Assembly (NCBI GenBank): GCA_963768055.1
Contig: CAVYGN010000001.1
Coordinates: 704,001 to 768,000, forward strand
Reading direction: 5' to 3'
DNA: 64,000 bases
From: an uncultured Spirochaetota bacterium
Lineage (GTDB): Bacteria; Spirochaetota; Brevinematia; Brevinematales; JAOACQ01
Both the position numbers and the translations under genes were made by a program. Each line of letters opens with the position of its first letter. Positions within the stretch are counted from its first letter, which is position 1. Shown in pieces: positions 82 to 34,547 of this stretch. The notes below the pieces were generated by a model. It searched no databases. It saw only the letters and a program-made list of their open reading frames with translations, and had not been told where the DNA came from.

Positions 82-112
82 TTTGATAAAAGTGCCGGGA
101 GGGGATAGAATA
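82..112 (+). promoter_or_regulatory. P module: sigma70-type promoter repeat
   Basis: TTGATA (83-88), 17 nt, TAGAAT (106-111); 31 nt identical to the copy at 5554-5584. Confidence 0.8.
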
Positions 113-140
113 TCTACAATAACTTTTTGGGGTTAATAAC

Positions 141-548
141 ATGCATTATGAGTTGTTAATAAAACTAGGGGGCATATTTCATTTAATTTGCGGACTGTTT
201 CACATTATTTTCCCAAAAATATTCAAATGGGAAGATAACTTGAATGATTTGCCCGAAACAAAAAGAAAAATAATTAAAGAAAGCTTATACCTTTCAAATA
301 TATGTATTCTACTGTTCTGGCTTATATTGGCCTATATCCCATTCTTTTATTCACAAGAAATGCTGACAACCAAAATTGGTAGAGCTCTTTTAACCTGCAT
401 TGTTATTAAATGGGTCATTCGCATATTTATTTTACATCCGATATTTTCGGGTATTAAAAGTAAATTATCAATATCAAGGATATTGTTCTTTTTAGCAGGA
501 TTTCTATTATTTTTAATACCCTGGATAAAAATATTCATTATAAAATAA
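141..548 (+). CDS. Small multi-pass membrane protein
   Basis: 135-aa hydrophobic ORF between a P and an R element. Confidence 0.75.
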   Translation: MHYELLIKLGGIFHLICGLFHIIFPKIFKWEDNLNDLPETKRKIIKESLYLSNICILLFWLILAYIPFFYSQEMLTTKIGRALLTCIVIKWVIRIFILHPIFSGIKSKLSISRILFFLAGFLLFLIPWIKIFIIK

Positions 549-553
549 GGAAT

Positions 554-592
554 GCTATTCCGTTCCCCCTGCTTTGCCGGCAATCAGGAGGG
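554..592 (+). repeat. R intergenic element
   Basis: gctattccgttccccctgctttgccggcaatcaggaggg, 5 nt after the stop. Confidence 0.75.
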
Positions 593-660
593 TTTCCATA
601 TCTAATAAGATGTTTCATTGCTGATTTTTCCCTCTTAAATCAATTTTTAGAGTAGTATGA

Positions 661-1578
661 TTATTTCGGAAACATCGATATAAGTGCGTCCTGGTACCCC
701 GGAACAGCGCTGTGATCATGATCGTATCCGTGAAGGATGTCCTGGGTCAGCTGAAAATTGGGGTAATTGCGGTTCCTTATCTGATTCACCCAAATGGGAT
801 CGTAGGCGATCATCCATTCGTTATCGCTGACCGAGGTGAATAGGGTGCAGTTCAAATCGCTGTTATTCTCCGCATAGGTTGCTTCCATATTCGATATACT
901 CGTGTCGTCCCACGGGAAGGCGGCCGGACTCAGAGACAGAAATTTGTGAAACATATCCCGGTGATTAAACATATTGTACAGCGAAAAAAGCCCTCCTAAG
1001 GAATGGCCGCCGAGACAGCGGTTGTCCGGGGTCGGGATCGTACGGTAATTGGAATCTATGTAGGGAATGAGCTTGTTTTTGATAAACGCCGCGAAGTTTT
1101 CCGCGCCCCCTGAGCCGGGGAAATTTCCGGTAGGATCGGCAGCCTGAATCAGATCGCGGCACCGGCTTGGGGACGTTCCCGTATAACCGTTTTGGTAAGC
1201 CTCGATCGGGCAAATTGCAACGAGGATGATCGGTTTCATGACCCCGGCCAACACTTGGGCATGGATCCAGCTTCGCACCGGATCAAAATGCCAGTTGGCG
1301 TCCGTAATATAGAGGGTCGTATAGGAAGTGCCCGTATCGGTTGCATAACCGTCGGGTAGATCGATAAAAACATAGTAGTAATCCTGAACGACATCCGAAT
1401 ACATGGTGATCGGATTCGAAACAGAACTTGACGATGATGAACTGTTAGAACTCGATGATGACGTTGATACAGAATTTACAGAGGATGAGGATGAACCGGA
1501 AGAATTAACCAGATTACATCCGGCTAAAATAGAATAAACAACCGTCATAAATATAACCAATCTGATTGAATGTGACAT
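661..1578 (-). CDS. Alpha/beta-hydrolase (IroE-like esterase) lipoprotein with Ser-rich linker
   Basis: LAGC lipobox, poly-Ser linker, GHSLGG nucleophile elbow, GGAENF motif; start uncertain. Confidence 0.8.
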   Translation of the reverse strand: MSHSIRLVIFMTVVYSILAGCNLVNSSGSSSSSVNSVSTSSSSSNSSSSSSSVSNPITMYSDVVQDYYYVFIDLPDGYATDTGTSYTTLYITDANWHFDPVRSWIHAQVLAGVMKPIILVAICPIEAYQNGYTGTSPSRCRDLIQAADPTGNFPGSGGAENFAAFIKNKLIPYIDSNYRTIPTPDNRCLGGHSLGGLFSLYNMFNHRDMFHKFLSLSPAAFPWDDTSISNMEATYAENNSDLNCTLFTSVSDNEWMIAYDPIWVNQIRNRNYPNFQLTQDILHGYDHDHSAVPGYQDALISMFPK

Positions 1579-1729
1579 ACTTTTATAATCCCCAAAAATA
1601 TCCTTGAGCACCCTATTATGTCAGAAATTCTTACTATCGGCACTGCCGTCCGGCAGGTTTAGTGACCCAGGGTCGGCGTTTTTAGTGACCCGCCCCCCTG
1701 TCTACCTTCAGTATAGCCTTTTCAGATTT

Positions 1730-2491
1730 TCAGGTCAAAGATTTTAACTTATTTTTCTTGATGAAATTATTCAACCTGAAACTTTTACCATCAATAACTA
1801 TTTTAACCGAACCGTCTATCAAGCGGTCCATAATCGCACTTCCAATTAAGGGATTAGAAAAAACCGCAGACCATTCAGATATATCTCGGTTGCTCGTAAT
1901 AATGGTCGAGGCTTTGGTATACCGTCCATTAATAACTTCATATAGATCATCCTGCTGCTGCTGATTTAAATCCTGAAGCCCAAAGTCATCAAGAATGAGA
2001 AGTTCGATTTTGAAGATGTTTTTCAGCTTTAAATTATAACTTCCATTGCCTCTTGCGGCGTTCAAGGAGCGCAGGAGCAAAACAGTGTTCTTAAACACTA
2101 CCTCATGGCCTCTCCGGATAGCCTCATGTCCGATCGATTGAGCCAGGTGCGACTTTCCGACCCCGGAATGGCCTAAAAAAAAGATGTTTTCTTTGTTTTT
2201 AAGGAAATAACAGGTTGCCAGTTCCTTTATAACAGCTTCATTAATCTGAGGATTAAAACTAAAGTTGAAACTTTCCAGTGTTTTGTCATATTCAAGACCG
2301 CTCTTTTTTAACCTGATTTTCATAGCTCGCTGTTCCCTTCTTTCTGATTCTTCAAGCAGTAGACCGAGCAGGAAATCAGTATATGATGTCTTTTCATTCT
2401 GGGCCTTCTGGATATGATAATCAAGATTTTCCAATACCCCCGAGAGTTTCAAATGTTTAAGCCGGGGTATTAATTGTGCCCTGTCGTCCAT
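1730..2491 (-). CDS. istB: IS21 helper ATPase IstB
   Basis: Walker A GHSGVGKS, Walker B LLILDDFG, TSN and DRL motifs. Confidence 0.95.
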   Translation of the reverse strand: MDDRAQLIPRLKHLKLSGVLENLDYHIQKAQNEKTSYTDFLLGLLLEESERREQRAMKIRLKKSGLEYDKTLESFNFSFNPQINEAVIKELATCYFLKNKENIFFLGHSGVGKSHLAQSIGHEAIRRGHEVVFKNTVLLLRSLNAARGNGSYNLKLKNIFKIELLILDDFGLQDLNQQQQDDLYEVINGRYTKASTIITSNRDISEWSAVFSNPLIGSAIMDRLIDGSVKIVIDGKSFRLNNFIKKNKLKSLT

Positions 2492-2506
2492 AATATTTTC
2501 CTCCTC

Positions 2507-4057
2507 CTATAATTTGAAGTAACTGCTATCCCTGGCATACTTGAACGGTAGGTAAGTTTTAGGTGGATGATTCTCGTCATAAGGCTCTTTCAGATCAAGC
2601 TCTTTAACCAGGATGCTCTTTACACTTGTATAGTTCGGAGTATCATAGAAAATTGCCCTCCTGCAGGCCGCTTCTAAGCGCTCTTTCGGATATTTCTTAG
2701 AAAGGAACAAAATACCTCTCGCAGAACGGAACCCGTCTATCTGTCTATTTGAAAGTATCCTTTCAACAACTTCCAGTGTCGTTTTTCCTATGTTTCCAGC
2801 CCAGGTAAGCAGGGATTGTGATGTTTCTGCCATATATTCTTCTTTGTAGGGCGGCGCGTGAAGGGGATTATGTGTATATTTCCATTTTATTCCGGATTTC
2901 TCATGAAGCGCTATCAATTCGTACCCGGAATATACTTTTACAGACTTTGAATCTGCGCAGACCATTACTTCCTGGCCGATATACTTGTAAGGGACGCTAT
3001 AGTATGAGCTGTCGTACTGAATCAGCCATTCGGGCCTTACAACGCAGGTTTTCCAGTTTATCATATCCCAATCTGTTAAAGGGAGCTTTGAGAGGGTCTT
3101 TGATTCTTCAATAAACATTTCGCAGGGGGATCTTCCTACGCCATGAATAATTCTGATATCTGCCGTGTCTTCATCCCATTTTTTAAGCGACTCTTCAAGA
3201 TCAATTGATATGGGTATTTTGTGGCCTTTCTGTTCCTGTTTCTCGATGAAATACGGCCAGAAGTTTCTTTTAATATATTTGATATCATTCTCTACGCCGC
3301 CCTTGTGTTCCGGTTTCCCGGGAAGACATGGACTGATCATGAAATCGTAATACTTGGCCATTTCAAGAAAACTTCGATTAAAGATAGGGTCATAAAATGC
3401 GGCTTTTACAACGGCCGATTTCAGGTTGTCCGGCACGATCTTCTTCGGTATTCCTCCAAAGTGATGAAAAGAATGTATGATGCATAGAAAAAATGTCTCT
3501 TTTTTCTGGTTATAGACCACCTCGCGATATGCCTTACGGCTCTTTCTAAGCCTGCCGGAGAATACCCAGGCTTTTCTGTTCCTGCATTCCAGCGGATCAT
3601 AGACTATGCCGAGATATCCGAAATCCACTTCCATAACCCCGTCTTCAAGGGGTCTGATCATCACGCTTGGTTTCAAAGCAGGAAATTTTCTCTGTATATA
3701 CCGCCGGACGGTTGTTTCGGATATATTTGCACAATCAGAAAATTCACTGATCAGCTTGTGAATAACCACATAACTTTTTTCATCTTCCCTGTATTTTTTT
3801 AGTTTCTCAATATGATTATCCAGGATGTGAGGTTTTCCTTTGATATTTTCCGGCTCATTATATGCCAGGTCCATTTCTTTTTCTGTGGGCACGTCTGATG
3901 ACGATGAAAGCCATTCCTTTTTATCGCCTATATCCTTTATTTTTCTTATGACTTCCCGGTGTGTCCCGGTTTCTTTGTGGATATTTCTGATAGATTCGCC
4001 TTTCTTTAGCCGGGTCAATATTTCGATGAGTTGTGCCATGGTTTTTACCCTCGCCAT
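2507..4057 (-). CDS. istA: IS21 DDE transposase IstA
   Basis: N-terminal HTH, MEVDFG, VPDNLKSAV, KGGVE. Confidence 0.95.
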   Translation of the reverse strand: MARVKTMAQLIEILTRLKKGESIRNIHKETGTHREVIRKIKDIGDKKEWLSSSSDVPTEKEMDLAYNEPENIKGKPHILDNHIEKLKKYREDEKSYVVIHKLISEFSDCANISETTVRRYIQRKFPALKPSVMIRPLEDGVMEVDFGYLGIVYDPLECRNRKAWVFSGRLRKSRKAYREVVYNQKKETFFLCIIHSFHHFGGIPKKIVPDNLKSAVVKAAFYDPIFNRSFLEMAKYYDFMISPCLPGKPEHKGGVENDIKYIKRNFWPYFIEKQEQKGHKIPISIDLEESLKKWDEDTADIRIIHGVGRSPCEMFIEESKTLSKLPLTDWDMINWKTCVVRPEWLIQYDSSYYSVPYKYIGQEVMVCADSKSVKVYSGYELIALHEKSGIKWKYTHNPLHAPPYKEEYMAETSQSLLTWAGNIGKTTLEVVERILSNRQIDGFRSARGILFLSKKYPKERLEAACRRAIFYDTPNYTSVKSILVKELDLKEPYDENHPPKTYLPFKYARDSSYFKL

Positions 4058-4508
4058 TCATTCCCCTCCTGTGTGATTTCAAAAATTATATCACATCAGG
4101 TGGGTCACTAAATACGCCGGGGGGTGGGTCACTTAAAGTGCCGATAGGTGGGTCGTTATTTTTGCCGACCCTGGGTCACTTGGGGTGCCGGATTGCACTT
4201 ACCGTTCTATAGAATTAGAAAGCTAAACATTTTAGCGCGAGCCTCATATATTTCAAATTTTAATTTTTACTGTTAATAATACCAAATATTAATAATTAAT
4301 ATGAAATAAAAATAAATAATATTTTTATATTTTAAATCATTGCTGTCTAAATTAGGAAAAATTTAAAAGCAGTTCATTATCAGCAGGTTTAGAACTTTTA
4401 CTATGAAACGGGGAATTCAGCCAATCCCACAAGTTTCTACGGGCAAAAACGCCATTCCACAAGTTTCAAACATTGTTCAAATTTAGACAAAGTAATTTCT
4501 AACCTTTT

Positions 4509-4563
4509 GTGCCTGCATTCTCCAGCATTTGGGAGGCATTGAATTGATGGGGGGATGAGAAAA
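4509..4563 (+). repeat. Degenerate R-linker-P element
   Basis: gtgcctgc..tccagcatt..attgaattgat..ggggatgagaa resembles the full element with deletions. Confidence 0.5.
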
Positions 4564-4565
4564 TT

Positions 4566-4607
4566 AGCAAAACAAATGTTGAGTAATTCATTCCAGAATG
4601 GCATAAT
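4566..4607 (+). promoter_or_regulatory. Second promoter module (P2)
   Basis: TTGAGT-N17-CATAAT; 36/42 nt identical to 21860-21901. Confidence 0.65.
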
Positions 4608-4631
4608 ATTGCAAAATATGAGGGTATTTAA

Positions 4632-5111
4632 ATGAACAAAGGTTTAAGCAATCTCATTTTATCACTAAAAAATTCGCCTTATATCATTCAAGATTTTCTG
4701 GTTCAAATTCCAAATGACAAACTTGATATTATAAGGAATAAGGATGCCTGGTCTATTAGACAGCATCTTTATCATATGGCTGGCGGTCAGGAGATGCTTT
4801 ATGAACGGATATTATCAATCAAAAATGATACAAATCCAAAAATAATGCCATATATCCCTACTAAAGAAGCTGAAGAAAAAAGGAAATTCAATTCCATAGA
4901 AGATGCTATCTCAAAATACATTGAGATTAGGGAAAAACAAATTTCTATTATTGAATCATTGTCTTCCGAAGAATTATTAAAAAAAGCCGAACATCTTGAG
5001 TATAAAAGATACAATATAATAATTTTGTTGAATCACATATTATTTCATGATTATTGGCATATGTATAGGATAGAAGAAATATTGCTTCTGAGAGATGAGT
5101 ATTTTATTTAA
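4632..5111 (+). CDS. DinB/YfiT family protein
   Basis: WSIRQHLYH and HDYWH His motifs. Confidence 0.85.
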   Translation: MNKGLSNLILSLKNSPYIIQDFLVQIPNDKLDIIRNKDAWSIRQHLYHMAGGQEMLYERILSIKNDTNPKIMPYIPTKEAEEKRKFNSIEDAISKYIEIREKQISIIESLSSEELLKKAEHLEYKRYNIIILLNHILFHDYWHMYRIEEILLLRDEYFI

Positions 5112-5112
5112 A

Positions 5113-5160
5113 GGTTTTCCACTCCTCCTGCTTTGCCTGCTGTGAGGGAATGGGGCAGGG
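5113..5160 (+). repeat. R intergenic element (hairpin form)
   Basis: ttttccactcctcctgctttgcctgctgtgagggaatgggg, directly after the stop. Confidence 0.8.
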
Positions 5161-5189
5161 TTGATGGGTGTAATTGATTAAGAGGTAAT

Positions 5190-5510
5190 ATGAAATATAC
5201 TTTTTTATCTTTAGCTATTTTATTTAATATAACAGCATATATAATTTTTAAATCTATATCTGGAAAGCAAAACAATCTACTGTGGTACATAATATTTTGT
5301 TCGGGTTTGATTATTGCGGGTATTAACACATTCTTTTTTACAAAGTCTTTAAAAGATTTAAACTTGGGAATTGCTTACCCAATATTTTCAGGTATAAGTA
5401 TTGCACTTATAATTTTTGTTTCAGTTTTTGTATTTAATGAAAAAATGAATTTGATCAATATATTTGGTGCTCTCATAATTATCATTGGGATTGTTTTATT
5501 AACAAGGTGA
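5190..5510 (+). CDS. SMR/DMT family transporter
   Basis: 106 aa, four hydrophobic segments, LGIAYPIFSG motif. Confidence 0.85.
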   Translation: MKYTFLSLAILFNITAYIIFKSISGKQNNLLWYIIFCSGLIIAGINTFFFTKSLKDLNLGIAYPIFSGISIALIIFVSVFVFNEKMNLINIFGALIIIIGIVLLTR

Positions 5511-5516
5511 ATTTTT

Positions 5517-5584
5517 CGCTTCCATTCCCTGTGTGCCTGCCTTCTTAGTCTGGTTTGATAAAAGTGCCGGGAGGGGATAGAATA
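5517..5584 (+). repeat. R + P composite element
   Basis: cgcttccattccctgtgtgcctgccttcttagtctgg, then TTGATA (5555)-N17-TAGAAT (5578). Confidence 0.8.
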
Positions 5585-5614
5585 AGGGAAAAATTGTTTA
5601 TTGGGGTTTTATAG

Positions 5615-6379
5615 ATGGAATTAATACAATTGAATCTTAGCGTAACCAATTGCTTTTTAATCAAGACAAAGAAACAATATGTTTTATTTGATACTGGCTA
5701 TGAGGAAGATTGGGAACTATTTTGTAAAAGATTAAAAGAAGTTAATGTAGATATCTCTGAAATCAGCCATATTATTCTTACCCATCATCACGATGACCAT
5801 TGTGGATTGGTGCATAAAATATTAGAAAAAAATAGTGATATCAAGATTGTGATGCATAATCTTGCGAAAGAGCTTATATCATCAGGTATGAATGATCAAA
5901 CTCATGGAGGAGGATTGATAAATAAACGGATGAATTTTTTAATCGGATTTAAACAATTTTATATTTCTGTTATATTGAGAAAGAATATTGATAAAAATAA
6001 TAATTTAAAATTTCCTCCTTATAAGGTTAGAGATAATGATATTATTGTTCAAAACGAAGTGACTTTAAAAGAAATCGGTATTGAATTGGAAGGGAGGATT
6101 ATTGAAACACCAGGGCATACAATAGATTCTATATCTCTTTTATTTGATGATGGTGATTGCATTGTAGGAGATGCTGCCGCAAACTTTTTTCAATTTGCTG
6201 GAATAAAGTATTGTGTTGTTTTTGTTAATGATTTAGATATTTATTACAAAAGCTGGGAAAAACTTATTTCAATGAATGCTCTAAAAATATATCCTGCTCA
6301 TGGAAAACCGTTTGGCATTGAAAAGTTAAAGGAAAATATAGGGAAGAATAAAAAAAAGCATATGGTAATGAATTCATAG
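5615..6379 (+). CDS. MBL-fold metallo-hydrolase
   Basis: THHHDDHCG, TPGHT, GDA, YPAHG. Confidence 0.9.
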   Translation: MELIQLNLSVTNCFLIKTKKQYVLFDTGYEEDWELFCKRLKEVNVDISEISHIILTHHHDDHCGLVHKILEKNSDIKIVMHNLAKELISSGMNDQTHGGGLINKRMNFLIGFKQFYISVILRKNIDKNNNLKFPPYKVRDNDIIVQNEVTLKEIGIELEGRIIETPGHTIDSISLLFDDGDCIVGDAAANFFQFAGIKYCVVFVNDLDIYYKSWEKLISMNALKIYPAHGKPFGIEKLKENIGKNKKKHMVMNS

Positions 6380-6399
6380 CTGTAGTTTCAAATAAACAA

Positions 6400-6488
6400 G
6401 CTCTTCCTCTCTCCTTTGCATCCCTCATTGTCCAGCTTTGTCATTCTCCACAGAAATTTTGATAAAACTAAAGAACGGGATTAAAATA
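6400..6488 (+). repeat. R-linker-P composite element
   Basis: gctcttcctctctcctttgc..tccagctttg..TTGATA (6459)-N17-TAAAAT (6482). Confidence 0.75.
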
Positions 6489-6521
6489 TTGAATATCATT
6501 CCTTTTAAAACAGAGTCAAAT

Positions 6522-6872
6522 ATGGAACCAAGATTATCTTTTAAAGTAAGGACAGAATATCGGGAATGGCTTATAAAAAATAGTAATAAAATAGAAATAA
6601 TATGGATAGAGTTTTATAAAGACGGAACTAAGGGCATTTCTTATGACGAAGCGCTGGAAGAATCATTATGTTTTGGCTGGATTGATTCACTGATAAATAA
6701 AGTAGATGAAAGAATTTATATAAGGAAATATTCAATAAGAAAGAAGAACAGCAAATGGTCTGATAGGAATAAAGAATTAGCGGATGAGTTGATTAAAAGA
6801 GGATTAATGACTGAATACGGTTTAAAATCCATAGCGGAAGCTAAGAAGAACGGCCAATGGAATGAGAAATAA
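6522..6872 (+). CDS. YdeI/OmpD-associated family protein (N-terminal part)
   Basis: YDEALEESLCFGWIDS and SKWS..NK motifs; ATG placed downstream of P. Confidence 0.8.
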   Translation: MEPRLSFKVRTEYREWLIKNSNKIEIIWIEFYKDGTKGISYDEALEESLCFGWIDSLINKVDERIYIRKYSIRKKNSKWSDRNKELADELIKRGLMTEYGLKSIAEAKKNGQWNEK

Positions 6873-6890
6873 TAAAGAAACTCATTTGAC

Positions 6891-6930
6891 CCTTTCCACC
6901 CCTTCTGCTTTACCTGCTGAGGGATGGAGG
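6891..6930 (+). repeat. R intergenic element (hairpin form)
   Basis: cctttccaccccttctgctttacctgctgagggatggagg. Confidence 0.75.
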
Positions 6931-6971
6931 ATTATATAGGGGAAGAATTGGAAAGGTAAAAAAGGGTATTT

Positions 6972-7307
6972 ATGAAAGAAGGACAAAGAGTAAAATTATC
7001 TGGTGGATATGACATGGATCCAAAATATCTTTCTGGGAAAGATTATCTCACAGGATATTTCATAAAATTTATTCCTGGACAAAACGGAAAAAAAGCAGCT
7101 GTAATTAAACTTGATGAACCTATTTTAATAGAAAATTATATAGGAGAAATTTGTGTTTTGGAATTAAGATATGTTGGTTCTCAATGGGGTAAAGAAAATA
7201 TATGTCATATAGAATTATGTAATTTTATCCCTGATGATATTAAATGGAATGATAGAAAACAAGGGAAATGGATTGAATCAAATTGTAGTGTTGAATTTAT
7301 TAAATAA
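6972..7307 (+). CDS. Hypothetical protein
   Basis: 111-aa ORF with purine-rich RBS, bounded by R elements. Confidence 0.7.
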   Translation: MKEGQRVKLSGGYDMDPKYLSGKDYLTGYFIKFIPGQNGKKAAVIKLDEPILIENYIGEICVLELRYVGSQWGKENICHIELCNFIPDDIKWNDRKQGKWIESNCSVEFIK

Positions 7308-7371
7308 TTCTTACCCTTTTGCTTTGCCTGCCTTCTTAGGTTTGATAAAAGTGCCAGGAGAGGATAGAATA
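7306..7371 (+). repeat. R + P composite element
   Basis: attcttacccttttgctttgcctgccttcttagg, then TTGATA (7342)-N17-TAGAAT (7365). Confidence 0.8.
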
Positions 7372-7399
7372 TATCCAAATAATTTTGGAGGATAATACA

Positions 7400-8152
7400 A
7401 TGGCTGAGCTGGGAATTAAGGGTAAATTTGCTTTGATTACAGGTAGTGCTCGTGGTATTGGGCGTTGCATCGCTGAAAAATTAGCAGAGGAAGGAAGTTC
7501 TTTAATTATCACTGATATTAATGAAGAAATGGCCAGAAAGACTGCCGATGAAATATCCAAAAAATATAAAGTTGAAACATATGCTTTAAAACATGATGTT
7601 TCATCTGAAGAATCGACAAAAAAAGTTGTTGATAATATAGTAATGAAATATTCAAGGGTAGATATTCTTATCAATAATGCAGGAATTACCAAGGATGCAA
7701 GGCTTATGATGATGCCGAAATCTTCCTGGGATCTGGTTATCTCTATTAATTTAACAGGTGCTTTTCTTTGCACTAAATATATATCAAAGCAAATGCTGAA
7801 GCAGAATAGTGGGAGCATTGTTAATATTGCATCTGTTGTTGGAATTATGGGAAATGTCGGTCAGGCAAATTATTCTGCATCAAAGGCAGGACTCATCGGC
7901 TTAACAAAAACAACAGCCAAAGAATTGTCTACAAGAGGAATTACTGTAAATGCAATTGCACCAGGTTATATTCATTCAGATATGACCGAAGTTTTATCAG
8001 AAGAAGTTTCTCAAAAAATGATGGAAAGAATACCATTGAACAAATATGGAACTCCTGAAGAAGTAGCTGATGCAGTATTGTTTTTAGTCTCAAACAGGGC
8101 AAAATATATAACCGGTCAAGTTTTGAATGTTGATGGCGGGATGATAATGTAA
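7400..8152 (+). CDS. fabG: 3-oxoacyl-ACP reductase (SDR)
   Basis: TGSARGIG, NNAGITKD, YSASKAG, ITGQVLNVDGG; GGAGG RBS. Confidence 0.85.
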   Translation: MAELGIKGKFALITGSARGIGRCIAEKLAEEGSSLIITDINEEMARKTADEISKKYKVETYALKHDVSSEESTKKVVDNIVMKYSRVDILINNAGITKDARLMMMPKSSWDLVISINLTGAFLCTKYISKQMLKQNSGSIVNIASVVGIMGNVGQANYSASKAGLIGLTKTTAKELSTRGITVNAIAPGYIHSDMTEVLSEEVSQKMMERIPLNKYGTPEEVADAVLFLVSNRAKYITGQVLNVDGGMIM

Positions 8153-8195
8153 ATATTCAGGGGTGAAATTTAAAAGGCCAGTTGAGGAGGCAAAT

Positions 8196-26245: not shown

Positions 26246-26249
26246 AATA

Positions 26250-26287
26250 GCTCTTCCGCTCCCTCTGCTTTGCCTGCTATGAGAAGG
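26250..26287 (+). repeat. R intergenic element (near consensus)
   Basis: gctcttccgctccctctgctttgcctgctatgagaagg; its end falls at the RBS position of the next gene. Confidence 0.85.
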
Positions 26288-26291
26288 TATT

Positions 26292-26990: not shown

Positions 26991-27032
26991 AAAGAAAAAT
27001 AAATATGCAATTCCTGATACTTCCCATTTCTA

Positions 27033-27173
27033 ATGTTTGTCCTTGTAATTGGCTTCATATTGGGCTTAGTATTGGAAATACATAAATATTGGTTTATCCT
27101 GGATTTTTTAGTCATTATAATTTGTGGGATCAGCGGTGTAGTGCTTTTAATTGAAAAAAAAGGCAGTAAATAA
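27033..27173 (+). CDS. Small 2-TM protein or gene remnant (46 aa)
   Basis: MFVLVIGFILGLVLEIHKYWFILDFLVIIICGISGVVLLIEKKGSK, translated by hand; followed by R. Confidence 0.45.
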   Translation: MFVLVIGFILGLVLEIHKYWFILDFLVIIICGISGVVLLIEKKGSK

Positions 27174-27184
27174 AATTTAAAGCT

Positions 27185-27277
27185 TATTCTTCCGCTCCCT
27201 CTGCTTTGCCTTCCTTCCCTTTTTCCAGCTTGCCACACTCCATTGAATTGATAAAAGCGCCAAGGGAAGATAGAATA
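27185..27277 (+). repeat. Full R-linker-P element
   Basis: tattcttccgctccctctgctttgcc..ttccagcttgcc..TTGATA (27248)-N17-TAGAAT (27271). Confidence 0.85.
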
Positions 27278-27347
27278 AGGGATTATTCTTATATAAGAAG
27301 CGGCATATTTTGTGTTATAAAGATTGCTTTACCCCATTATTTTGTAT

Positions 27348-27746
27348 TTAAACAAAATTCTGAATCCTGAATGGTTCTCCGATTTCAACTATGTGATTAT
27401 CGGGATCATAAAATCTGAATACATTTTGCCCCCAAGCCTGTTTTTCAATCTCATGTATAAATTTTACATTCCCATCTTTAATCCTTTCAAATGCATCTTC
27501 CAAATGATCGCATTCAAAATAAATAAGCAGATTTTTGCTGCCCTGTTTGAATTTTGAAAATAATCGATCTTTCTTAAAAACAGTTTTAATCAGGTTTCGG
27601 GAATTATGAATAACGAAATGATCCTCAAAAATGACTATGGTACCGTAGTCTTCTAAAACGTGTAAACCAAGTAATTCAATATAAAACCTTTTTGAAAGGC
27701 TGATATTTTTGACAAAAACAATTGTGTTTACAAATTTTACTTTCAT
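27348..27746 (-). CDS. VOC/glyoxalase family protein
   Basis: SKRFYIELLGL, QAWGQNVFRFYDPDNHIVEIGE. Confidence 0.9.
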   Translation of the reverse strand: MKVKFVNTIVFVKNISLSKRFYIELLGLHVLEDYGTIVIFEDHFVIHNSRNLIKTVFKKDRLFSKFKQGSKNLLIYFECDHLEDAFERIKDGNVKFIHEIEKQAWGQNVFRFYDPDNHIVEIGEPFRIQNFV

Positions 27747-27910
27747 AGTTTTTCCTTATAATATAACTAAATAGAATAAGTATTTTAAAAGAGAATTTAT
27801 CTTTGTCAAGAGGACAGGCAAGAGTATTTTATTATAGATTCATTTGTATCAATATCATGCTCAGAATATATAACAGTGGCTAAAACTCTTATGATCCTCC
27901 CTTATGCCCC

Positions 27911-27983
27911 GCCTGCCTTCCCCCCTTTCCAGCTTTGCCTGACAAATGAAATTTTGATAAAAACGCCAAGAGGGTATAGAATA
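27911..27983 (+). repeat. Partial R-linker-P element
   Basis: gcctgccttcc..tccagctttgcctgacaaatgaaatt, then TTGATA (27954)-N17-TAGAAT (27977). Confidence 0.8.
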
Positions 27984-28664
27984 AGGTAATGGGATTAAAA
28001 GGTTAAATCATTATTTTGGAGGTTTTATGTTTAAGAGAGCTGTACTAATAAATTATATATTATTTTAGTGATTGAGATGAGTTATGGCAAAGAATGTTTT
28101 TGAAATTTTATTATATAGAATTAAACGTGAAGAATTTTATTTAAAATACCGAAATGCATTGAATATTAAATTATCTGAATTTTATACAGAAAAAGATCCT
28201 AATGCTTTAAATTTCGAGGATTTATTTTTGAACTTATGGAGGGCCTTGGGAATACAATCGGGTAATCGGCGCAATTAAAATATATATTTTTGGAAACCAA
28301 ATAAGAGGAGATTTATGGTTATCCGGGAAAAAAAGATATTTAAAAATAATGACTAATAAAAACATTCATAGCTTTGATAAAGCATTTGAAATTAACAGTA
28401 TTTGATAATATGACAAATTATGATATTTCTAAAAAAATAAAGGAAAGAACTTATGAGTATTTTTCGCAATACTTTGTATTGTGCTTCAAGCTCTCTTTCT
28501 TCTTCACTGTCAGAATAATCAGGCGGAATGATTGGCATAAGGGCTCCTTGTTGACTTTTTATTTTCTTTAATTATAATTTGTTTTTAACAATTTGTAAGT
28601 GATAAAAGTATTTAACAGATTGATTATCATTGTATAAAATAACATTTGATTTTAGGGGCTGCTA

Positions 28665-29993
28665 ATGTATAAAAATTTCTTTTTTACTCTTTTTATTTCA
28701 TTTGTTATTACTGGACTGTTATGGCCGCAAAATATCGAAATGAAATCTGTAACAGTCGCTGGTTTCATTAACAAAGGCAAAGCAAATCAGGCTAATATAA
28801 ATATAATGATGGGAAAATCTTTATCTACTTTCCTGGCTAAAATATCAAAAAATATAACACCATTTAAAGATGTTGAAGAAACTGCTTTAAGCAATTCTTT
28901 TTGGAGTCAGAAAGAGTTAAAAAGCAGTCAGGCAATCAATATAGCCCAACAGTTTTCAACTGAACAAGTAATAACGGGCGATTATCTGGTTAATGATAGT
29001 GGAATTATTACCATCAACGTTTATGTTTATAATGTCATAAATGGAGATTTACTGTTTAAAAGGACTTATAAGGGAGATGCTGGCCCAGAAATCTTTGATA
29101 CTATCGATAAAATGATACTGGATGTATCAGGTCTTCTTGTTGGAAAAACAATTTCTCTGGGTTATTTACAAGTTTCTATAAAGCCTAAAGATGTGAATTA
29201 CAGGCTATTCATCAATGATTCTTTTGTTAAAGTGATAAACAATCAAAATGGATACTTTGACAAATTTATAGCAGGTCAATCCATAGATATCAGCCTTAAA
29301 TCAGAGAAATCTGATGATGAAGCAATGAGGAAAATTGTCGAGATTAAAGGAGGAAATACTAATGAATTAGATTTCAATCCTTCTGGGACATTAATGATAG
29401 AGGCAATGGAAGAGGGGTTTGATGTTTATTTAAACGGGGTGAAAAAAGGTAAAACTGACAGCTCGGGGGAATTTGTTATCTCAGGTGTTGAATCTGCCAA
29501 AGATAATGCCATTCAATTAAAAAAGGGTGATGCATTATTATCTGAAACGAATATTGTAATCAAAGAAGGAGCAACAAAAGCCATTATTTTTAAACTATCT
29601 GGAGCTCAACCAATTGAAAATAAACAAAACGATGAAATTGAAGTCTGGTCAAAATATCCAAATGGAATAAAATATGTTGCAAAAAAAAGCGGGATATATA
29701 AATTTGAATTTAACAGAGGGGCATATAGAGATCAAGCAGCCAATAATTGGGAAACTCTTATCCTAATTTATACAAATAGAAATATCGTTACAGAAAGTGG
29801 TTTTCCAGTAAGATTTGATTTTAAAATTGGCAGCGCTGTTTATGAATCAACCTTGGAAAAAGCGGAACAAAAAGCGATTGGCCAAAATATATCTATTGAG
29901 ATGCAGAAAAACGATTTTGTTATTTTTGTGGATAAGCCAATTAACTATAATAATAGCTTAGGTAGTGTTTATTTAACTGTAAATCTGGAATAA
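28665..29993 (+). CDS. Exported protein (TolB-N/PEGA-like beta domains possible)
   Basis: Signal peptide; VITGDY, DVYLNGVKKGKT; domain call tentative. Confidence 0.65.
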   Translation: MYKNFFFTLFISFVITGLLWPQNIEMKSVTVAGFINKGKANQANINIMMGKSLSTFLAKISKNITPFKDVEETALSNSFWSQKELKSSQAINIAQQFSTEQVITGDYLVNDSGIITINVYVYNVINGDLLFKRTYKGDAGPEIFDTIDKMILDVSGLLVGKTISLGYLQVSIKPKDVNYRLFINDSFVKVINNQNGYFDKFIAGQSIDISLKSEKSDDEAMRKIVEIKGGNTNELDFNPSGTLMIEAMEEGFDVYLNGVKKGKTDSSGEFVISGVESAKDNAIQLKKGDALLSETNIVIKEGATKAIIFKLSGAQPIENKQNDEIEVWSKYPNGIKYVAKKSGIYKFEFNRGAYRDQAANNWETLILIYTNRNIVTESGFPVRFDFKIGSAVYESTLEKAEQKAIGQNISIEMQKNDFVIFVDKPINYNNSLGSVYLTVNLE

Positions 29994-30031
29994 TATTAGA
30001 TTATTTTTAGTAATTTGATGATTTATTGCAA

Positions 30032-30238
30032 TTAATCCTCTGCCAATTCCAGCACTTTCTCACCCTGGAGCTTAGTTTTAAGGGTCTCCCTGATTATTTC
30101 ATCTGATGCAGGCGCTTCTAAGGTAAGGGTAGCGATATTTTGACCGTTATCCAGTATTTCAGTAAGACAGGTTTCATCAAACTGCTTGGTCTGTATCCAA
30201 TATAATCTCCCGCTGAATTCAATATAATGTGGCTGCAT
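30032..30238 (-). CDS. Small hypothetical protein
   Basis: 68 aa with a strong AAGGAGG RBS. Confidence 0.6.
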   Translation of the reverse strand: MQPHYIEFSGRLYWIQTKQFDETCLTEILDNGQNIATLTLEAPASDEIIRETLKTKLQGEKVLELAED

Positions 30239-30339
30239 ATTGCCCTCCTTGTGAAAATATCGGATAAATTTAAAATGGAATAAGGGGAAGATAAGGAGTC
30301 TGGCAAGCCAGAATAATCTTTTTGAGGCTATGAAAATTG

Positions 30340-30375
30340 GAAATTTTGATAAAAGCGCTAAGAGGGGATAGAATA
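30340..30375 (+). promoter_or_regulatory. P module
   Basis: gaaatt-TTGATA (30346)aaagcgctaagagggga-TAGAAT (30369). Confidence 0.8.
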
Positions 30376-30399
30376 AAGGAAATTTTAAGGGGATTAGAT

Positions 30400-30702
30400 A
30401 TGGTTAGAGTATTAGTTTTATATCCGAGAATTGAAGGCAAAAAGTTTGATTTTAATTATTACAAAAATCATCATATGAAATTGGTAAAAGAAAAATTAAA
30501 CCCTGTTAAAGTTGAGATTGATTTTGGGATTGTTAATCAGGAAAATCCATCACCATATATTGTGGTCAGCCACATGATTTTTGAATCACAAGAGCAGCTG
30601 ACAAATCGTTATAAGGAATTCTCAAAAATATTAAATGAGGATAAGCTGAAATTCACTGATATTGATATAATTAGACAGATAAGTGAAATAATTGATTTAT
30701 AG
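30400..30702 (+). CDS. EthD family reductase
   Basis: VLVLYP..FDFNYYKNHHMKLV..FTDI..QISE. Confidence 0.85.
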   Translation: MVRVLVLYPRIEGKKFDFNYYKNHHMKLVKEKLNPVKVEIDFGIVNQENPSPYIVVSHMIFESQEQLTNRYKEFSKILNEDKLKFTDIDIIRQISEIIDL

Positions 30703-30750
30703 GTTTTTTGTTCAAGTGTTTGAAAACCCGCATGTTCTTTTCCGAATAAA

Positions 30751-30786
30751 GAAATTTTGATAAATCAATGGGACGGTATTAGAATA
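30751..30786 (+). promoter_or_regulatory. P module
   Basis: TTGATA (30757)aatcaatgggacggtat-TAGAAT (30780). Confidence 0.8.
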
Positions 30787-30804
30787 ATGATTTGGATGGT
30801 TCAA

Positions 30805-31170
30805 ATGAATAATAATTATCACGGAATAATACTTAATGTGAGTCAAGTAAACCAGTCAATATTTAATTCTTTAAAGATTATTGGAAAACTTAAAGTAAAA
30901 AATTCAAATTGGATATTGTATAAGGTTGAAATTAATCCTAATGATTTAGATGTTATAACATTAATCCTGCAAGAAAACATGAATGAAAATAAATTTTATT
31001 TCCATTTCTATAGAAATAATGAATTAATTATTGTATTTAAAAATCGAATATTTAAAATATCAACAGAGAAATCAACCTGGTCAGAAGCTATAGAATATGG
31101 AAAATCACTTGCAATTCCGGAAAAGCAGCTTGATTTTGTGCCCAATAGAATTGAAGATGAAACATATTAA
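30805..31170 (+). CDS. Hypothetical protein
   Basis: ORF between P and R; FYFHFY..IIVFK..W..AIEYG..IP..QLDF; start uncertain. Confidence 0.7.
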   Translation: MNNNYHGIILNVSQVNQSIFNSLKIIGKLKVKNSNWILYKVEINPNDLDVITLILQENMNENKFYFHFYRNNELIIVFKNRIFKISTEKSTWSEAIEYGKSLAIPEKQLDFVPNRIEDETY

Positions 31171-31175
31171 ATTTT

Positions 31176-31206
31176 GCTCTTCCGCTCCATTTGCTCAGCT
31201 TGCTGC
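31176..31206 (+). repeat. R intergenic element
   Basis: gctcttccgctccatttgctcagcttgctgc, 5 nt after the stop. Confidence 0.7.
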
Positions 31207-31659
31207 GGTTTGGGAGAATAAATGAATTGAAGTTATGGCGGCTTTGAATGAATGAACAAGAGAAATCCGTATTAATTCAAGATTATCAAAACAAGATCCA
31301 TCAATTATTAGAATTAATTATAAACACATCGGATGAAGAATTGGATTATAGACCTCAAAGTTATTTTTGGACAATACGGGAACATACAGCTCATGTTATG
31401 GATTGTGAAATTTTTGGATTTGCACGATATAGAAAATCGATAGCAGAACCGAATTCCCGAGTAGAGGGTTTTAATCAGGATTCATTACAATCAAATCCGG
31501 ATTATTCTAAAATGGATATTTTTAAAGCAACTCAAATAATTCAAATTTTAAATGAAATAACTATAAATCATCTATTATCCATTGTAGATAAAGACTGGAA
31601 TAAATTTTATATCAATCATCCTGAAAGCGGTTTTTGTCAAGGGAGTTGTCGCTTTTATT

Positions 31660-32688
31660 TTACGCCGCAACCAACGATTCCTTGTTAGTCTTACTCGGGT
31701 TTAAAAATACCGATTCTATCCGTTCCCATTTTTTAGATTCTCCTGACCATCTTTCAGGATGTCTGCTTTTTGCAGCCGCATAAGTTTCCGCTCTCTTCAG
31801 GAGTATCGCCTTATCTTTACCTTCATGTCTCTGTGCTGGTGTGACATATCCGATCCCTGAATGAAGATGTTTATTATTATACCAGTCTACAAAATTTTGC
31901 ATCCATATTTCTACCGATTCCATTGTCTCGAAATTGCCTGGGTATTTCACATTATATTTCAATGTTTTAAACAATGATTCTGAGTAAGGGTTATCGTTAC
32001 TTACACTCGGCCTTGAAAACGACGGCATAACCTGTAACCTCTGCAAGGTCGCTAACATCGTAGCCCCTTTCATAGGAGAACCATTATCAGAATGTAAATA
32101 CAAGCCTTTCAAATCAATGGTTTCTCCGATCTCTGCCACCATTCTTGCGGCATGATCAGAGCTTTCCTCCTCGTGCATTTTCCAGCCGACTATCTTACGG
32201 CTCCAGACATCTTCGATCATATAGAGGTAGAAATACTTACCTTTTATATGACTGGATATATATGTAATATCCCAACTCCATACCTGATTAGGACCCGTCG
32301 CTTCCAGTTCTCTTGGCGTTTTCCTTGCCGTTTTCGGCTTCGTTTCGTATCTATGGTGCAGCAAATCATTGTCCTTTAAAACGCGGTAAAAAGATGATTC
32401 TGATGCTATATACCGACCTTCCTCTGCCAGCATGGGCACTATTTCATTCGGCGTCATATCTCTAAATCTCTCGCTGCAACAGCAGGAGATGATCTCCTCC
32501 CTTTCTTCGGCCGACAGGGCATTTGAAGGCATTACATTTCTCAATTTTCTTCTGTCTCCCTCAAGATTTTTATTCCAGCGCTGTATGGTCCTTATATCAT
32601 AGCCAGATTCTTCACAAGCCTTATCCCTGCTGGCCCCTGTCGTAACAGCCTCATTAATCAAGGCACAGATATCTATGCGTATATCCAA
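31660..32688 (-). CDS. IS3 transposase OrfB
   Basis: Protein identical to the other copies. Confidence 0.95.
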   Translation of the reverse strand: MDIRIDICALINEAVTTGASRDKACEESGYDIRTIQRWNKNLEGDRRKLRNVMPSNALSAEEREEIISCCCSERFRDMTPNEIVPMLAEEGRYIASESSFYRVLKDNDLLHHRYETKPKTARKTPRELEATGPNQVWSWDITYISSHIKGKYFYLYMIEDVWSRKIVGWKMHEEESSDHAARMVAEIGETIDLKGLYLHSDNGSPMKGATMLATLQRLQVMPSFSRPSVSNDNPYSESLFKTLKYNVKYPGNFETMESVEIWMQNFVDWYNNKHLHSGIGYVTPAQRHEGKDKAILLKRAETYAAAKSRHPERWSGESKKWERIESVFLNPSKTNKESLVAA

Positions 32689-32693
32689 TGGAG

Positions 32694-33176
32694 TTAATCT
32701 TCCTCGATCCCGAACAGCTTGTTCAGTTTTTTTTTAAGCACCAGCAGAGAAGTAACCTCGGCTATAGTTTTATCCTTACGGTTAATTTCTTTTTCTAACT
32801 CTATGATTTTTGCTTTCAAACCCTTGTTTTCTTCTCTGTATGAGTTATTAGATATCACTGATAAACACTCCTGTTTCCAGAGTTCGATATGAGTCGACTG
32901 GAGACCATTTTTTCTCAACCACTGTCCTAACTCTTCTCCCGATTGGCTTGCTGCGTCTACTACCGCCTGATATTTATCAGATAATTTCCAGCCTCTCGGG
33001 CTTCTATCCTGGAATCCTCTGGATACATTATTCTGGATCATTTTCCTCCAGTTGTAAAGGGTTTGTTCACATACTCCTATTTCCTGGCTCAGTTCAGATA
33101 CTGTTTTTCCTCCTGGCATACACATCTTTTGAACGATAGATTTCCTGAATTCCTCTGAACGAATTTGACTATTCAT
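32694..33176 (-). CDS. IS3 transposase OrfA
   Basis: Protein identical to the other copies. Confidence 0.9.
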   Translation of the reverse strand: MNSQIRSEEFRKSIVQKMCMPGGKTVSELSQEIGVCEQTLYNWRKMIQNNVSRGFQDRSPRGWKLSDKYQAVVDAASQSGEELGQWLRKNGLQSTHIELWKQECLSVISNNSYREENKGLKAKIIELEKEINRKDKTIAEVTSLLVLKKKLNKLFGIEED

Positions 33177-33336
33177 TTTTTGTCTCCTAATATTTTAGGC
33201 GACAACTATCCTAACACACGGGGAAAGAGGGAATGAAAATCTTGAAAAGCTAATAGATAGAAGGATTAACCATACTATTGAGCATATTGAGTATATTAAA
33301 AGGAATAAAACATTGTTCAGAAAATAAACAGGTTGA

Positions 33337-33376
33337 GCTCTTCCGTTCCTCTGTTTTGCCTATGAGGATGGGGGGT
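33337..33376 (+). repeat. R intergenic element (hairpin form)
   Basis: gctcttccgttcctctgttttgcctatgaggatggggggt. Confidence 0.8.
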
Positions 33377-33401
33377 GAAGGAATGATTCAAGAGGTGGTA
33401 A

Positions 33402-33860
33402 ATGGTGTATCAAATAATCAATATGAAAAATTATTCAGGCGGACTTGTTGAAGGCATAAAATATTATCATAGTAAATGGGGTAATCATAGTAACTATAGT
33501 TTCTTTTTTGATGCGATTTCTCATTCAACAAACTCTAAATATGGTCTACCAAGGTTTTATTTATTAATCAAAAATGATAAAATTATTGGCTGCTGCGGTT
33601 TAATTATTAATGATTTTATCAGTCGTCATGATTTGTATCCTTGGCTTGCAGGCGTTTTCATAGAAGAAAATGAAAGAGGTCAGGGTTTAGGGAACATTAT
33701 TATAAAACATACTGAAAACGAAGCAAAAAATGCCGGATATTCAACGATTTACCTTACTACTAAACTTGATGGTTATTATGAGAAATATGGTTGGAAAAGA
33801 ACTGATGATGGGTATTATCTATCAGGTGAAATAACAAGAATATATATGAAGGAATTATAA
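33402..33860 (+). CDS. GNAT acetyltransferase
   Basis: PWLAGVFIEENERGQGLG, YYEKYGW. Confidence 0.9.
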   Translation: MVYQIINMKNYSGGLVEGIKYYHSKWGNHSNYSFFFDAISHSTNSKYGLPRFYLLIKNDKIIGCCGLIINDFISRHDLYPWLAGVFIEENERGQGLGNIIIKHTENEAKNAGYSTIYLTTKLDGYYEKYGWKRTDDGYYLSGEITRIYMKEL

Positions 33861-33864
33861 ATAA

Positions 33865-33952
33865 TATTCTTCCTTTCCCTTGCTTCCCTTCCCATTTTCC
33901 AGCATTGCCAGACAAATGAATTATTGATAAATCAATGGGACGGGATTAGAAT
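33865..33952 (+). repeat. Full R-linker-P element
   Basis: tattcttcctttcccttgc..ttccagcattgccagacaaatgaa..TTGATA (33924)-N17-TAGAAT (33947). Confidence 0.85.
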
Positions 33953-33967
33953 TAATGGAGGTTGCAG

Positions 33968-34438
33968 ATGGTTATAACTGTATTGTATTTTATTGGCTTA
34001 ATATTTGGGATAATTGCTGTTAAAATTACAGGAGGACATATAACGACTCAAGGTATTGCAACTATAATGTTGCAATATTTTTTTCTTATTAGTGTAGGGT
34101 TAACATCAGTAATAGCATTTTTTGGACATGTTTTTAGTGGAGAAACTTCAGCAAAACTCCTTGGCTGGCAGTCTAATAATCCGTTTCAAAAGGAAGTGGG
34201 GTTTTGGGATTTAGCAGGAGGAGTTGGGGCTATTTTATGTTTTTGGATACATGGTGAATTTTGGTTAGCAATAATAATAATTACTACAATATTTTGGACA
34301 CTTGCCGGGGTATTACATTTACAACATGTATTCAGAAATAAAAATTATCATATAGATAATTTGCTTCCATCAATTATGGATTTTATTATTCCAGCGACGC
34401 TTATTATTCTTTACATATTCAGTGGACCTATTGTGTAA
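33968..34438 (+). CDS. Conserved membrane protein (DUF6790-like)
   Basis: LGW..NPFQKEVGF motif, several TM segments; GGAGG RBS. Confidence 0.7.
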   Translation: MVITVLYFIGLIFGIIAVKITGGHITTQGIATIMLQYFFLISVGLTSVIAFFGHVFSGETSAKLLGWQSNNPFQKEVGFWDLAGGVGAILCFWIHGEFWLAIIIITTIFWTLAGVLHLQHVFRNKNYHIDNLLPSIMDFIIPATLIILYIFSGPIV

Positions 34439-34450
34439 AGGATAGTTGTC

Positions 34451-34481
34451 GTCTTCCGTTCCCCTGCGCCTGCTATGAGGG
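34451..34481 (+). repeat. Last R intergenic element
   Basis: gtcttccgttcccctgcgcctgctatgaggg. Confidence 0.75.
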
Positions 34482-34512
34482 CAGCCTGTTCGGCTGTTTC
34501 GGGTCTGCGTTC

Positions 34513-34547
34513 GAGTTGCCTTCTTCGTTTGAAGAGGAAGGCAACTC
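34513..34547. terminator. Strong hairpin at the end of the array
   Basis: gagttgccttc / gaaggcaactc 11-bp stem. Confidence 0.5.

Follow-up and report, generated by a model that had tools for sequence, protein, structure and literature searches.

The cassette array and its cargo

The stretch of DNA analyzed here (the window; 64,000 nucleotides, C1:704001-768000) comes from the genome of an uncultured Spirochaetota bacterium of the order Brevinematales, which is assembled in two contigs (C1 and C2; 3.69 Mb). The first half of the window contains part of a cassette array (77..34500, + strand), with about 32 open reading frames (ORFs) on the + strand against two minus-strand ORFs that do not belong to insertion sequences (IS). 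We found that the co-oriented small accessory genes of this array are followed, past their stop codons, by a repeat family (R) that is degenerate and nevertheless real, and that the cassettes move in the sense that the same units have different neighbors, both among the arrays of the genome and when these are compared with a sister species, a metagenome contig and public sequencing runs.

The array is AT-rich (GC content 0.346 against 0.414 for the contig), as are the arrays of this genome overall (0.343-0.346 against 0.414-0.416 for the contigs), and it runs on upstream of window position 1 to about C1:583 kb, broken by other DNA. An earlier note, made from the letters of the window alone, had described the cargo as integron-like, and Pfam supports the families that it named. 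The products belong to the DinB, SMR, MBL, SDR, VOC, GNAT, cupin, methyltransferase, PilZ and PEMT families, and further to APH, DJ-1, flavodoxin, class D beta-lactamase, EthD and DUF6790. The class D beta-lactamase homolog is a protein of 286 aa with a best identity of 55-65% to metagenome and Clostridia proteins; among these homologs, of which the named ones are mostly from Clostridia, no recent donor of the cassette was identified.

A degenerate repeat family past the stop codons

The 28-mer that the earlier note had given as the motif R matches just twice at up to three mismatches. It thus represents a single copy of R rather than a consensus, and profiles were used instead. The family itself stands: a 15-nt core, CTCTGCTTTGCCTGC, matches 12 times in the window at up to three mismatches, on the + strand only and always within 567-33363, where 1.09 matches are expected by chance and none of 100 shuffles gets to 12. 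The alignment of 30 R copies shows a conserved block, CCCTCTGCTTTGCCTGC (the R core), with three invariant columns (T21, T23 and C26), and conservation is greatest at the center of the element rather than at its ends.

A sequence-only profile model of R (R1; match cut-off E ≤ 0.01) finds 32 copies in the genome, 25 of them at C1:583-738 kb (+ strand) and the remaining seven at C2:1855-1859 kb (four, + strand), C2:1153-1155 kb (two, - strand) and C1:1789 kb (one, - strand). R is confined to these four or five loci, and all copies are co-oriented with the genes. The position of R just past the stop codons of same-strand genes, also proposed earlier, was confirmed with open frames of at least 70 codons on the same strand: 28 of the 32 matches start between -3 and +50 nt past a stop codon (27 within 20 nt; median distance from stop codon to R, 7 nt). 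Among 2000 positions drawn at random from that region the share is 12.9%.

The 18 positions listed in the earlier note align as one family. Twelve of them reach the cut-off of R1 and six are degenerate (5517, 6400, 25091, 31176, 33865 and 34451). The R boxes, all on the + strand, are as follows. Those at 554..600 and 5113..5160 (a short form) are recovered by the family alignment, by R1 and by the core-pattern scan. The family alignment and R1 agree on 6891..6935, 22901..22945 and 33337..33380 (all short forms), on 7306..7335, which is joined to a promoter-like P box (see below), on 8574..8605, between the VOC and GNAT genes, on 11850..11900, a short form whose cassette carries a long form in array C (on C2), and on 21808..21835, which is followed by a third, promoter-like linker common to C1:702959. 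The short form at 23820..23866 is found in the same two ways and also in public-run contigs, where runs X2 and X3 have an alternative junction. The copy quoted in the earlier note lies at 26250..26290 (28-mer search and R1), and the R box at 27186..27246, which includes a second box, M2, was identified by R1. Two degenerate copies with an M2 box, at 6400..6452 and 25091..25148, were found by the family alignment and the core-pattern scan. The family alignment also yielded the degenerate boxes at 5517..5548 (joined to a P box), 31176..31215, 33866..33919 (with an M2 box) and 34451..34485, the last R box and the right end of the array.

Among relatives the family is nearly restricted to this genome. 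The core pattern occurs 23 times here, against zero to four times in each of 40 relatives. R1 finds four clear copies in the sister species G003; in the remaining 41 genomes of the class it has no match or a single weak one per genome. A 20-mer of R has 22 single scattered matches in unrelated taxa among 185,579 species genomes, which we read as chance, and a 22-mer has no match in the JGI metagenomes. Rfam, at gathering thresholds, has no match in the window. R is not a genome-wide repetitive extragenic palindromic (REP) family; the profile scan of the genome and its relatives, which the earlier note had proposed, shows it clustered and not spread in the manner of a REP or terminator family.

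Modular spacers with predicted promoters

The spacers between the genes are modular and start with R, the R box having the form AGCTCTTCC..CCCTCTGCTTTGCCTGC. There are two options for what follows it: either a short G-rich closure (TATGAGGGATGGGG...) with a ribosome-binding site and the ATG behind it, or the pyrimidine-rich M2 box (TTTCCAGCATTGCCAGACAAATGAA) and then the P box of 45 nt. The closure of the short form, TATGAGGGATGG (e.g., window 5140-5160 and 11875-11895), resembles the GGA-type motifs bound by CsrA-like RNA-binding proteins. The P box has a sigma70-type pattern (TTGATA-17-TAGAAT; module form AATTTTGATAAA-N-GGGGATAGAATAAGG) and occurs with two types of spacer, A (AAAGYGCCRGGAGGGGA) and B (AATCTGNGGGACGGGAT).

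Thirteen P boxes were counted in 1-34.6 kb of the window, all on the + strand. The P-box search found type A at 79..124, at 5553..5594 (before the MBL cassette, and common to metagenome contig L046) and at 7338..7381, a mixed type at 6454..6499, and the 5' half of a box split by an IS3 copy at 9162..9188, with its 3' half at 10785-10805. For the eight P boxes within 20-35 kb the promoter scan agrees, giving each a score of 10/12. These belong to type A at 27247..27289, 27949..27991 and 30341..30386, and to type B at 20495..20540, 25150..25193 (before the class D beta-lactamase gene), 30752..30794 (with the ATG of the gene at 30805) and 33920..33961; the box at 22503..22545 has a hybrid spacer, its 5' half being of type B and its 3' half of type A.

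P modules also stand alone before genes outside the arrays (C1:368860, 505645, 555286, 744884, 749759 and 763408; C2:249483), three of them in the core part of the window, and another is present in a metagenome contig from a relative (L045). The promoter score and this occurrence before other genes suggest that the P box is a real promoter, and many cassettes would then be individually promoted. The copies at window 40885-40927, 45761-45799 and 59409-59450, which precede core genes, are P-box-like promoters of the form AATTTTGATAAA-N-GATAGAAT whose spacer contains a small palindrome; such stand-alone copies look like the strong promoter consensus of the organism. The third type of linker after R, TATATGACTTATAGTTCCGAGTAAGCAAAATAAATGTTGAATAATTCAT..., lies at window 21836-21900 and C1:702985-703060 and has its own promoter-like TTGAAT-17-CATAAT. 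Sequence resembling this linker is also found before the DinB gene, at window about 4540-4620.

Comparison with integrons and dispersed repeats

Integron arrays and clusters of attC sites lacking an integrase (CALINs) resemble the R arrays in many respects. They are likewise long runs of co-oriented, mostly single-gene accessory cassettes with a species-specific repeat a few nucleotides past each stop codon, their cargo falls into the same classes (GNAT, VOC, DinB, SMR, MBL, toxin-antitoxin pairs, class D beta-lactamase), and their content varies between relatives. A decayed integron or CALIN that has lost its integrase and whose attC sites have diverged strongly would account for the small co-oriented cassettes, the typical cargo and the repeat directly past the stop codon. 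It is nevertheless the least credible of the explanations considered here and is already contradicted on every defining feature tested. The best match of the genome to the IntI model TIGR02249 scores 87.8 bits against a cut-off of 265; it is an Xer-like protein of 296 aa, encoded far from the array, and of the model only positions 245-302 and 11-181 are covered. The 35 genomes of the order likewise have no IntI match at E ≤ 1e-40. The core pair RYYYAAC...GTTRRRY (R''/R'), whose absence the earlier note had rightly observed, is present in none of 32 elements, and random pieces of 201 nt have it in 0.3% of cases. Cassettes of integrons mostly lack a promoter and are read from a common Pc; in the R array the cassettes are co-oriented, and neither an attI nor a Pc was identified. 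In addition, the conserved part of R is the center and not the ends, many R cassettes appear to have their own promoter, and the junctions do not fall at one nucleotide. By these features the array is not an integron.

The structural tests agree with this. The duplex energy between the two arms of the same element is -8.00 kcal/mol against -7.75 kcal/mol between arms of different elements (n = 33 elements; permutation p about 0.18). Since arm pairing is no better than pairing across elements, the apparent palindrome between the C-rich R and the G-rich promoter spacer is an effect of composition. The RNA folds of 16 elements have z-scores of -1.84 to +1.24, none of them above the controls, and the DNA folds are weak (-2 to -10 kcal/mol). 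There is no covariation in the short-form R hairpin (60.7% of cells paired, against 60.4% in shuffles). With no fold, no covariation and no own-arm pairing, R is conserved as sequence and not as structure.

We also looked for the enzymes of such a system. By Pfam, there is no gene for a tyrosine or serine recombinase, an HUH protein or a reverse transcriptase (RT) in the arrays (152 ORFs upstream in C1:564-704 kb, 44 in the window and 44 around arrays B and C), and the IS3 and IS21 transposases are the only recombinase-type genes in the window, in line with the earlier statement that it has no integrase. No recombinase gene was found in or beside the arrays examined in this genome, in the sister species G003 or in contig L046, and PF00078 (RT) was not found in the genome. 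The suggestion that an integrase may lie upstream of position 1 did not hold for IntI; what lies there is a tRNA-Tyr gene and a truncated integrase of the island type (see below). Xer-dependent modules (pdif/IMEX) are bounded by 28-bp dif-like sites with XerC and XerD arms. A loose dif-like motif has about 40 scattered matches in this AT-rich genome and no visible likeness to R or P. None of them is in the array spans (C1:583-738.5 kb, C2:1150-1156 and 1854-1861 kb), the nearest being C2:1853066 (~1.7 kb before array C) and C1:1791059 and 1791485 (~1.5-2 kb from the R copy at C1:1789 kb).

A selfish non-coding repeat that invades intergenic gaps, either like a REP or bacterial interspersed mosaic element (BIME), like a miniature inverted-repeat transposable element (MITE) or as a mobile promoter, could leave short, non-coding, modular spacers in long and short forms, and the P box does stand alone elsewhere in the genome and in another species. 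We nevertheless find this origin quite improbable for R. Unlike REP/BIME sequences with their associated tyrosine transposase (RAYT), the copies are clustered rather than dispersed and are not palindromic beyond composition, and no Y1/RAYT gene (PF01797) was found in the genome, which is 94.75% complete. Unlike MITEs, all copies are co-oriented with the genes, without terminal inverted repeats or pairing between their own arms. They also keep fixed positions relative to the stop and start codons.

Islands docked at tRNA genes

Upstream of the window, a tRNA-Tyr gene (C1:689795-689878) is followed by arm-type repeats (GTACCAnTTTAGTACCAC) and by an ORF of 226 aa that corresponds to the N-terminal 205 residues of the tyrosine integrase of the tRNA-Ala island (33% identity, E 3e-33). 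A 15-nt copy of the 3' end of the tRNA-Tyr gene, ATCCACCCCCGACCA, recurs in the window at 20177..20192 (+ strand; tRNA comparison) with arm repeats on both sides, and the sequence past this att remnant is homologous to the sequence past the tRNA-Tyr gene. The arm-repeat search placed GTACCAnTTTAGTACCAC at 20067..20084 (+ strand), the right end of a first island, and a further arm-type repeat at 20275..20292 (+ strand), the left end of a second island, homologous to the sequence directly after tRNA-Tyr. The tRNA copy, the arm repeats and the repeated flank thus indicate that the array of the window lies in two tandem islands docked at tRNA-Tyr, with the att remnant as their joint. Island 1 spans C1:689,879-724,176 and has a truncated integrase; island 2 extends from 724,193 to about 738,600 and its integrase is gone. 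A tRNA gene, a direct repeat of its 3' end and a tyrosine integrase by the tRNA identify these as tRNA-anchored integrative islands. The truncated integrase accounts for the island, not for the cassettes.

The island that contains array C is docked at tRNA-Ala; it encodes two intact integrases and has a partial copy of the tRNA at its distal side. A metagenome relative has a mini-array 3.5 kb behind the same tRNA-Ala. The island integrase family is also found in G003, and not, with this query, in the genomes G001, G002 and G004 of the genus. In G004, the 40 kb upstream of the ortholog of the right-flank gene contain no R or P array. In G002, the contig breaks off after 437 nt on the upstream side. 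There is no tRNA gene at this place. Two side observations concern the integrases. At tRNA-Tyr, a fusion joins the truncated island integrase to the 3' part of a cassette gene with 97.7% identity to a gene of array C (C1:690616-691024 and C2:1856116-1856511), a deletion scar that removes the catalytic half of the integrase. In the upstream array region, a 4.4-kb duplicate (93% identical; C1:634446-638798 and C2:1129641-1134032) encodes a 517-aa protein with a weak Phage_integrase match and adjoins a tRNA-Ser gene and a prophage-like stretch with RecT/Gp157.

Accretion of islands at tRNA genes is known from genomic islands, including the tycheposon-type islands of Prochlorococcus. The R arrays resemble these in lying downstream of tRNA-Tyr and tRNA-Ala, with partial copies of the tRNA 3' end, arm repeats and partly decayed tyrosine integrases, in being AT-rich and in being absent from the matching place in a sister species. 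They differ in having only two or three att remnants per about 50 genes and in a repeat between the genes that is not tRNA-derived. In a comparison with 49 tRNA and tmRNA genes, the best local scores of R and M2-P were 11 and 13, against shuffle means of 11.4 and 11.9, and a tRNA origin was rejected. As R is not tRNA-derived, the single cassettes are not scars of tRNA-type integration. We describe the arrays as cassette arrays inside integrative islands, with a junction repeat that is not derived from tRNA and is predicted to bear promoters.

Movement of cassettes and position of breakpoints

A unit of a cupin and a methyltransferase gene is present in three copies in the genome (91-95% identity). 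The copies are homologous from GGGGATAGAAT, within the promoter spacer, as far as GCTTTGCC in the R core, past which one copy has the short closure and another the full M2/P linker. Arrays B and D share a GNAT gene with 96% identity, which is limited to the stretch between approximately the ATG and the stop codon; the spacer variants flanking it differ on either side. In one duplicate the end lies in a P box, behind GATAAATCT, and the start within an ORF, at a fusion with the truncated island integrase.

In the sister species G003, a cupin cassette (83%) and a Fer4 cassette (93%) are orthologous to cassettes at C1:604.5-606.8 kb. Between the two, G003 has one DUF6790 gene and our genome has two other genes. 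The Fer4 cassette keeps its -10 box, leader and R box and has a -35 half-spacer of another type, which makes its spacer a hybrid. A 27-mer of the P box matches two contigs in the JGI metagenomes, and contig L046 has a mini-array in another context that opens with the MBL cassette known from window 5554-6419 (90% identity).

Junctions that differ from the window were also found in Logan contigs of four public runs from two studies (150-465 nt long, with sides of 20-74 nt). In runs X2 and X3, the R box at 23860 is joined through a different leader of 31 nt to the ATG at 30805. Further contigs connect 24411 with 26237, 21807 with 26250, and 26283 with 27230, the last of these joins skipping the MBL gene; one contig jumps back from 22474 to 20651. 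Each of these junctions is weak alone; taken together they indicate that the gene order is not fixed. With R clustered and the gene order differing, the picture is not that of a genome-wide repeat among stably ordered genes.

The two clearest hybrid B/A spacers are joined at different points, one after AATCTGTGG (C1:605983) and the other after AATC (C1:726502). Junctions that are scattered over parts of the spacer or ends of ORFs speak against a single crossover point. The earlier note had looked to gain, loss or reordering of genes with breakpoints inside R. The order does vary between arrays, species and populations, and the junctions lie in or beside R; they do not share a single position.

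Possible mechanisms

We favor, with a probability of roughly one half, the explanation that units are lost, replaced and reordered through recombination or gene conversion between the repeated spacer modules. The spacer, made of an R box, an optional M2 box and then the G-rich closure or the P box, separates units that mostly consist of a single gene, and its R, M2 and P blocks, present in many direct copies, would serve as portable homology. Exchange between copies of a module would leave mosaic spacers with breakpoints at varied places; through exchange or gene conversion between blocks, near-identical ORFs can come to sit between unlike spacers. The shuffling would then probably proceed by homologous or homeologous recombination, and R may have its own role at the transcript level or as a protein-binding box, e.g., in the punctuation of transcription units. 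A parallel is provided by the intergenic mosaic elements, minimal mobile elements and ‘putative mobile promoters’ of Neisseria, where gene units are exchanged through conserved flanks. The likeness lies in mosaic modular intergenic repeats, in exchange via flanks and in promoter-bearing modules that are copied to many genes. Unlike these elements, the modules of the R arrays follow a set order (R, M2, P), share the orientation of the genes and are limited to a few islands, where they separate dozens of unrelated genes in a row.

Several points weigh against exchange through homology. The copies of the spacer are only about 65-90% alike and their conserved blocks measure 14-17 nt, which is short for recombination of the RecA type. 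Homologous exchange gives no reason why a 17-nt core without structure is nearly invariant, and it leaves unexplained how a foreign ORF first came to be flanked by P and R. Three independent comparisons arrive at similar cassette limits (from GGGGATAGAAT to the R core), which could reflect a defined unit, and the evidence from populations consists of the short Logan contigs of the two studies.

These same limits would suit a site-specific system, in which a unit from the -10 box through the leader and the ORF to the R core is moved between islands by a recombinase encoded elsewhere. The enzyme could be one of the island tyrosine integrases, Xer or the product of an unassembled gene, and would recognize either the R core or the promoter spacer in double-stranded form. 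In favor of this are the integron-like layout and an R core kept as sequence without structure, which is what one expects of a protein-binding site. Furthermore, hybrid promoter spacers are joined where types A and B have little homology, and the island integrase family is present in two of two genus genomes with R arrays and in none of three without them (these genomes are kin and not independent). However, no recombinase gene accompanies the arrays examined, some junctions are found instead at an ATG, at a stop codon or within ORFs, the point of joining differs between the hybrid spacers, and R is unlike both the tRNA att cores and the arm repeats of the island integrases. On balance we consider such a system unlikely. 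The same low estimate applies to its fuller form, namely capture arrays analogous to integrons that lack IntI and attC, in which a putative DNA-binding recombinase would recognize the 17-nt R core by sequence and each junction would rebuild a promoter. Of the shuffling platform with its own recombination site, as first proposed, the cassette-like array on a non-attC repeat is thus retained. The site itself is not supported, given the lack of a conserved fold or covariation, the varied positions of the breakpoints and the lack of an associated recombinase, HUH or RT gene.

Slightly less probable again is the view that R is purely an expression signal (a 3' end, a site of termination or processing, or a regulator-binding box with a promoter) and has no role in recombination, the arrays being ordinary island cargo gathered by accretion and duplication. 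R does start directly past the stop codon and is followed by a promoter or ribosome-binding site. Intrinsic terminators do not mark the ends of cassettes (nine against 8.3 expected, none of them at an R box), and Rho is present in the genome. The long forms of R are C-rich and G-poor, and a C-G difference of at least 0.2 is found in 11.4% of array 3' flanks without a called R, against 1.1% elsewhere. Yet such a signal would be expected after core genes too, and R is restricted to the arrays; moreover, R has no fold and the junctions of rearrangements coincide with the modules. A rut-like (C > G) reading of R was rejected since the composition holds for the long forms only and the short forms are without bias (C 0.225, G 0.231).

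Insertion sequences and the right end of the array

Pfam and the comparison of duplicates identified five IS copies in the array, all on the minus strand. The IS3-family copy at 9189..10784 (ORFs of 160 and 342 aa) lies inside a P box; the insertion (window 9162-10805), between GGAGGGG and GGGGGGGATAGAAT, splits the promoter of the cupin cassette. Two more IS3-family copies are at 17720..19316 and at 31628..33224, the latter truncating a DinB cassette. About 15 near-identical copies of this IS3-family element are present in the genome. A targeting of the P box by IS3 was considered and rejected, just one of the three IS3 copies of the window being located in a P box. Two copies of the IS21 family are at 1641..4198 (IstA/IstB) and 14758..17292.

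Directly past the last R box, at the border to the core genes, there is a strong hairpin (GAGTTGCCTTCTTCG...GAAGAGGAAGGCAACTC; window 34505-34545) that may act as a terminator at the end of the array. An ORF of 2887 aa lies on the minus strand (46548-55211) in the core part of the window, which is richer in GC.

Significance

Integrons are, to our knowledge, the only well-understood bacterial means of keeping long rows of swappable single-gene cassettes. We found here a comparable row without integron parts, with dozens of accessory genes that include a class D beta-lactamase, an APH-type kinase and an SMR pump. A search of the literature on Brevinematales with integrons returned no published description of such arrays and otherwise only general integron papers. 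Tools that seek IntI and attC would miss arrays of this type. The unit of promoter, gene and R box is a natural structure with a testable logic. If the spacer modules drive the exchange, through homology or an enzyme, the arrays would represent a separate route to modular accessory genomes. If a site-specific enzyme were responsible, they would amount to a second, independently evolved cassette system in a spirochaete-related lineage.

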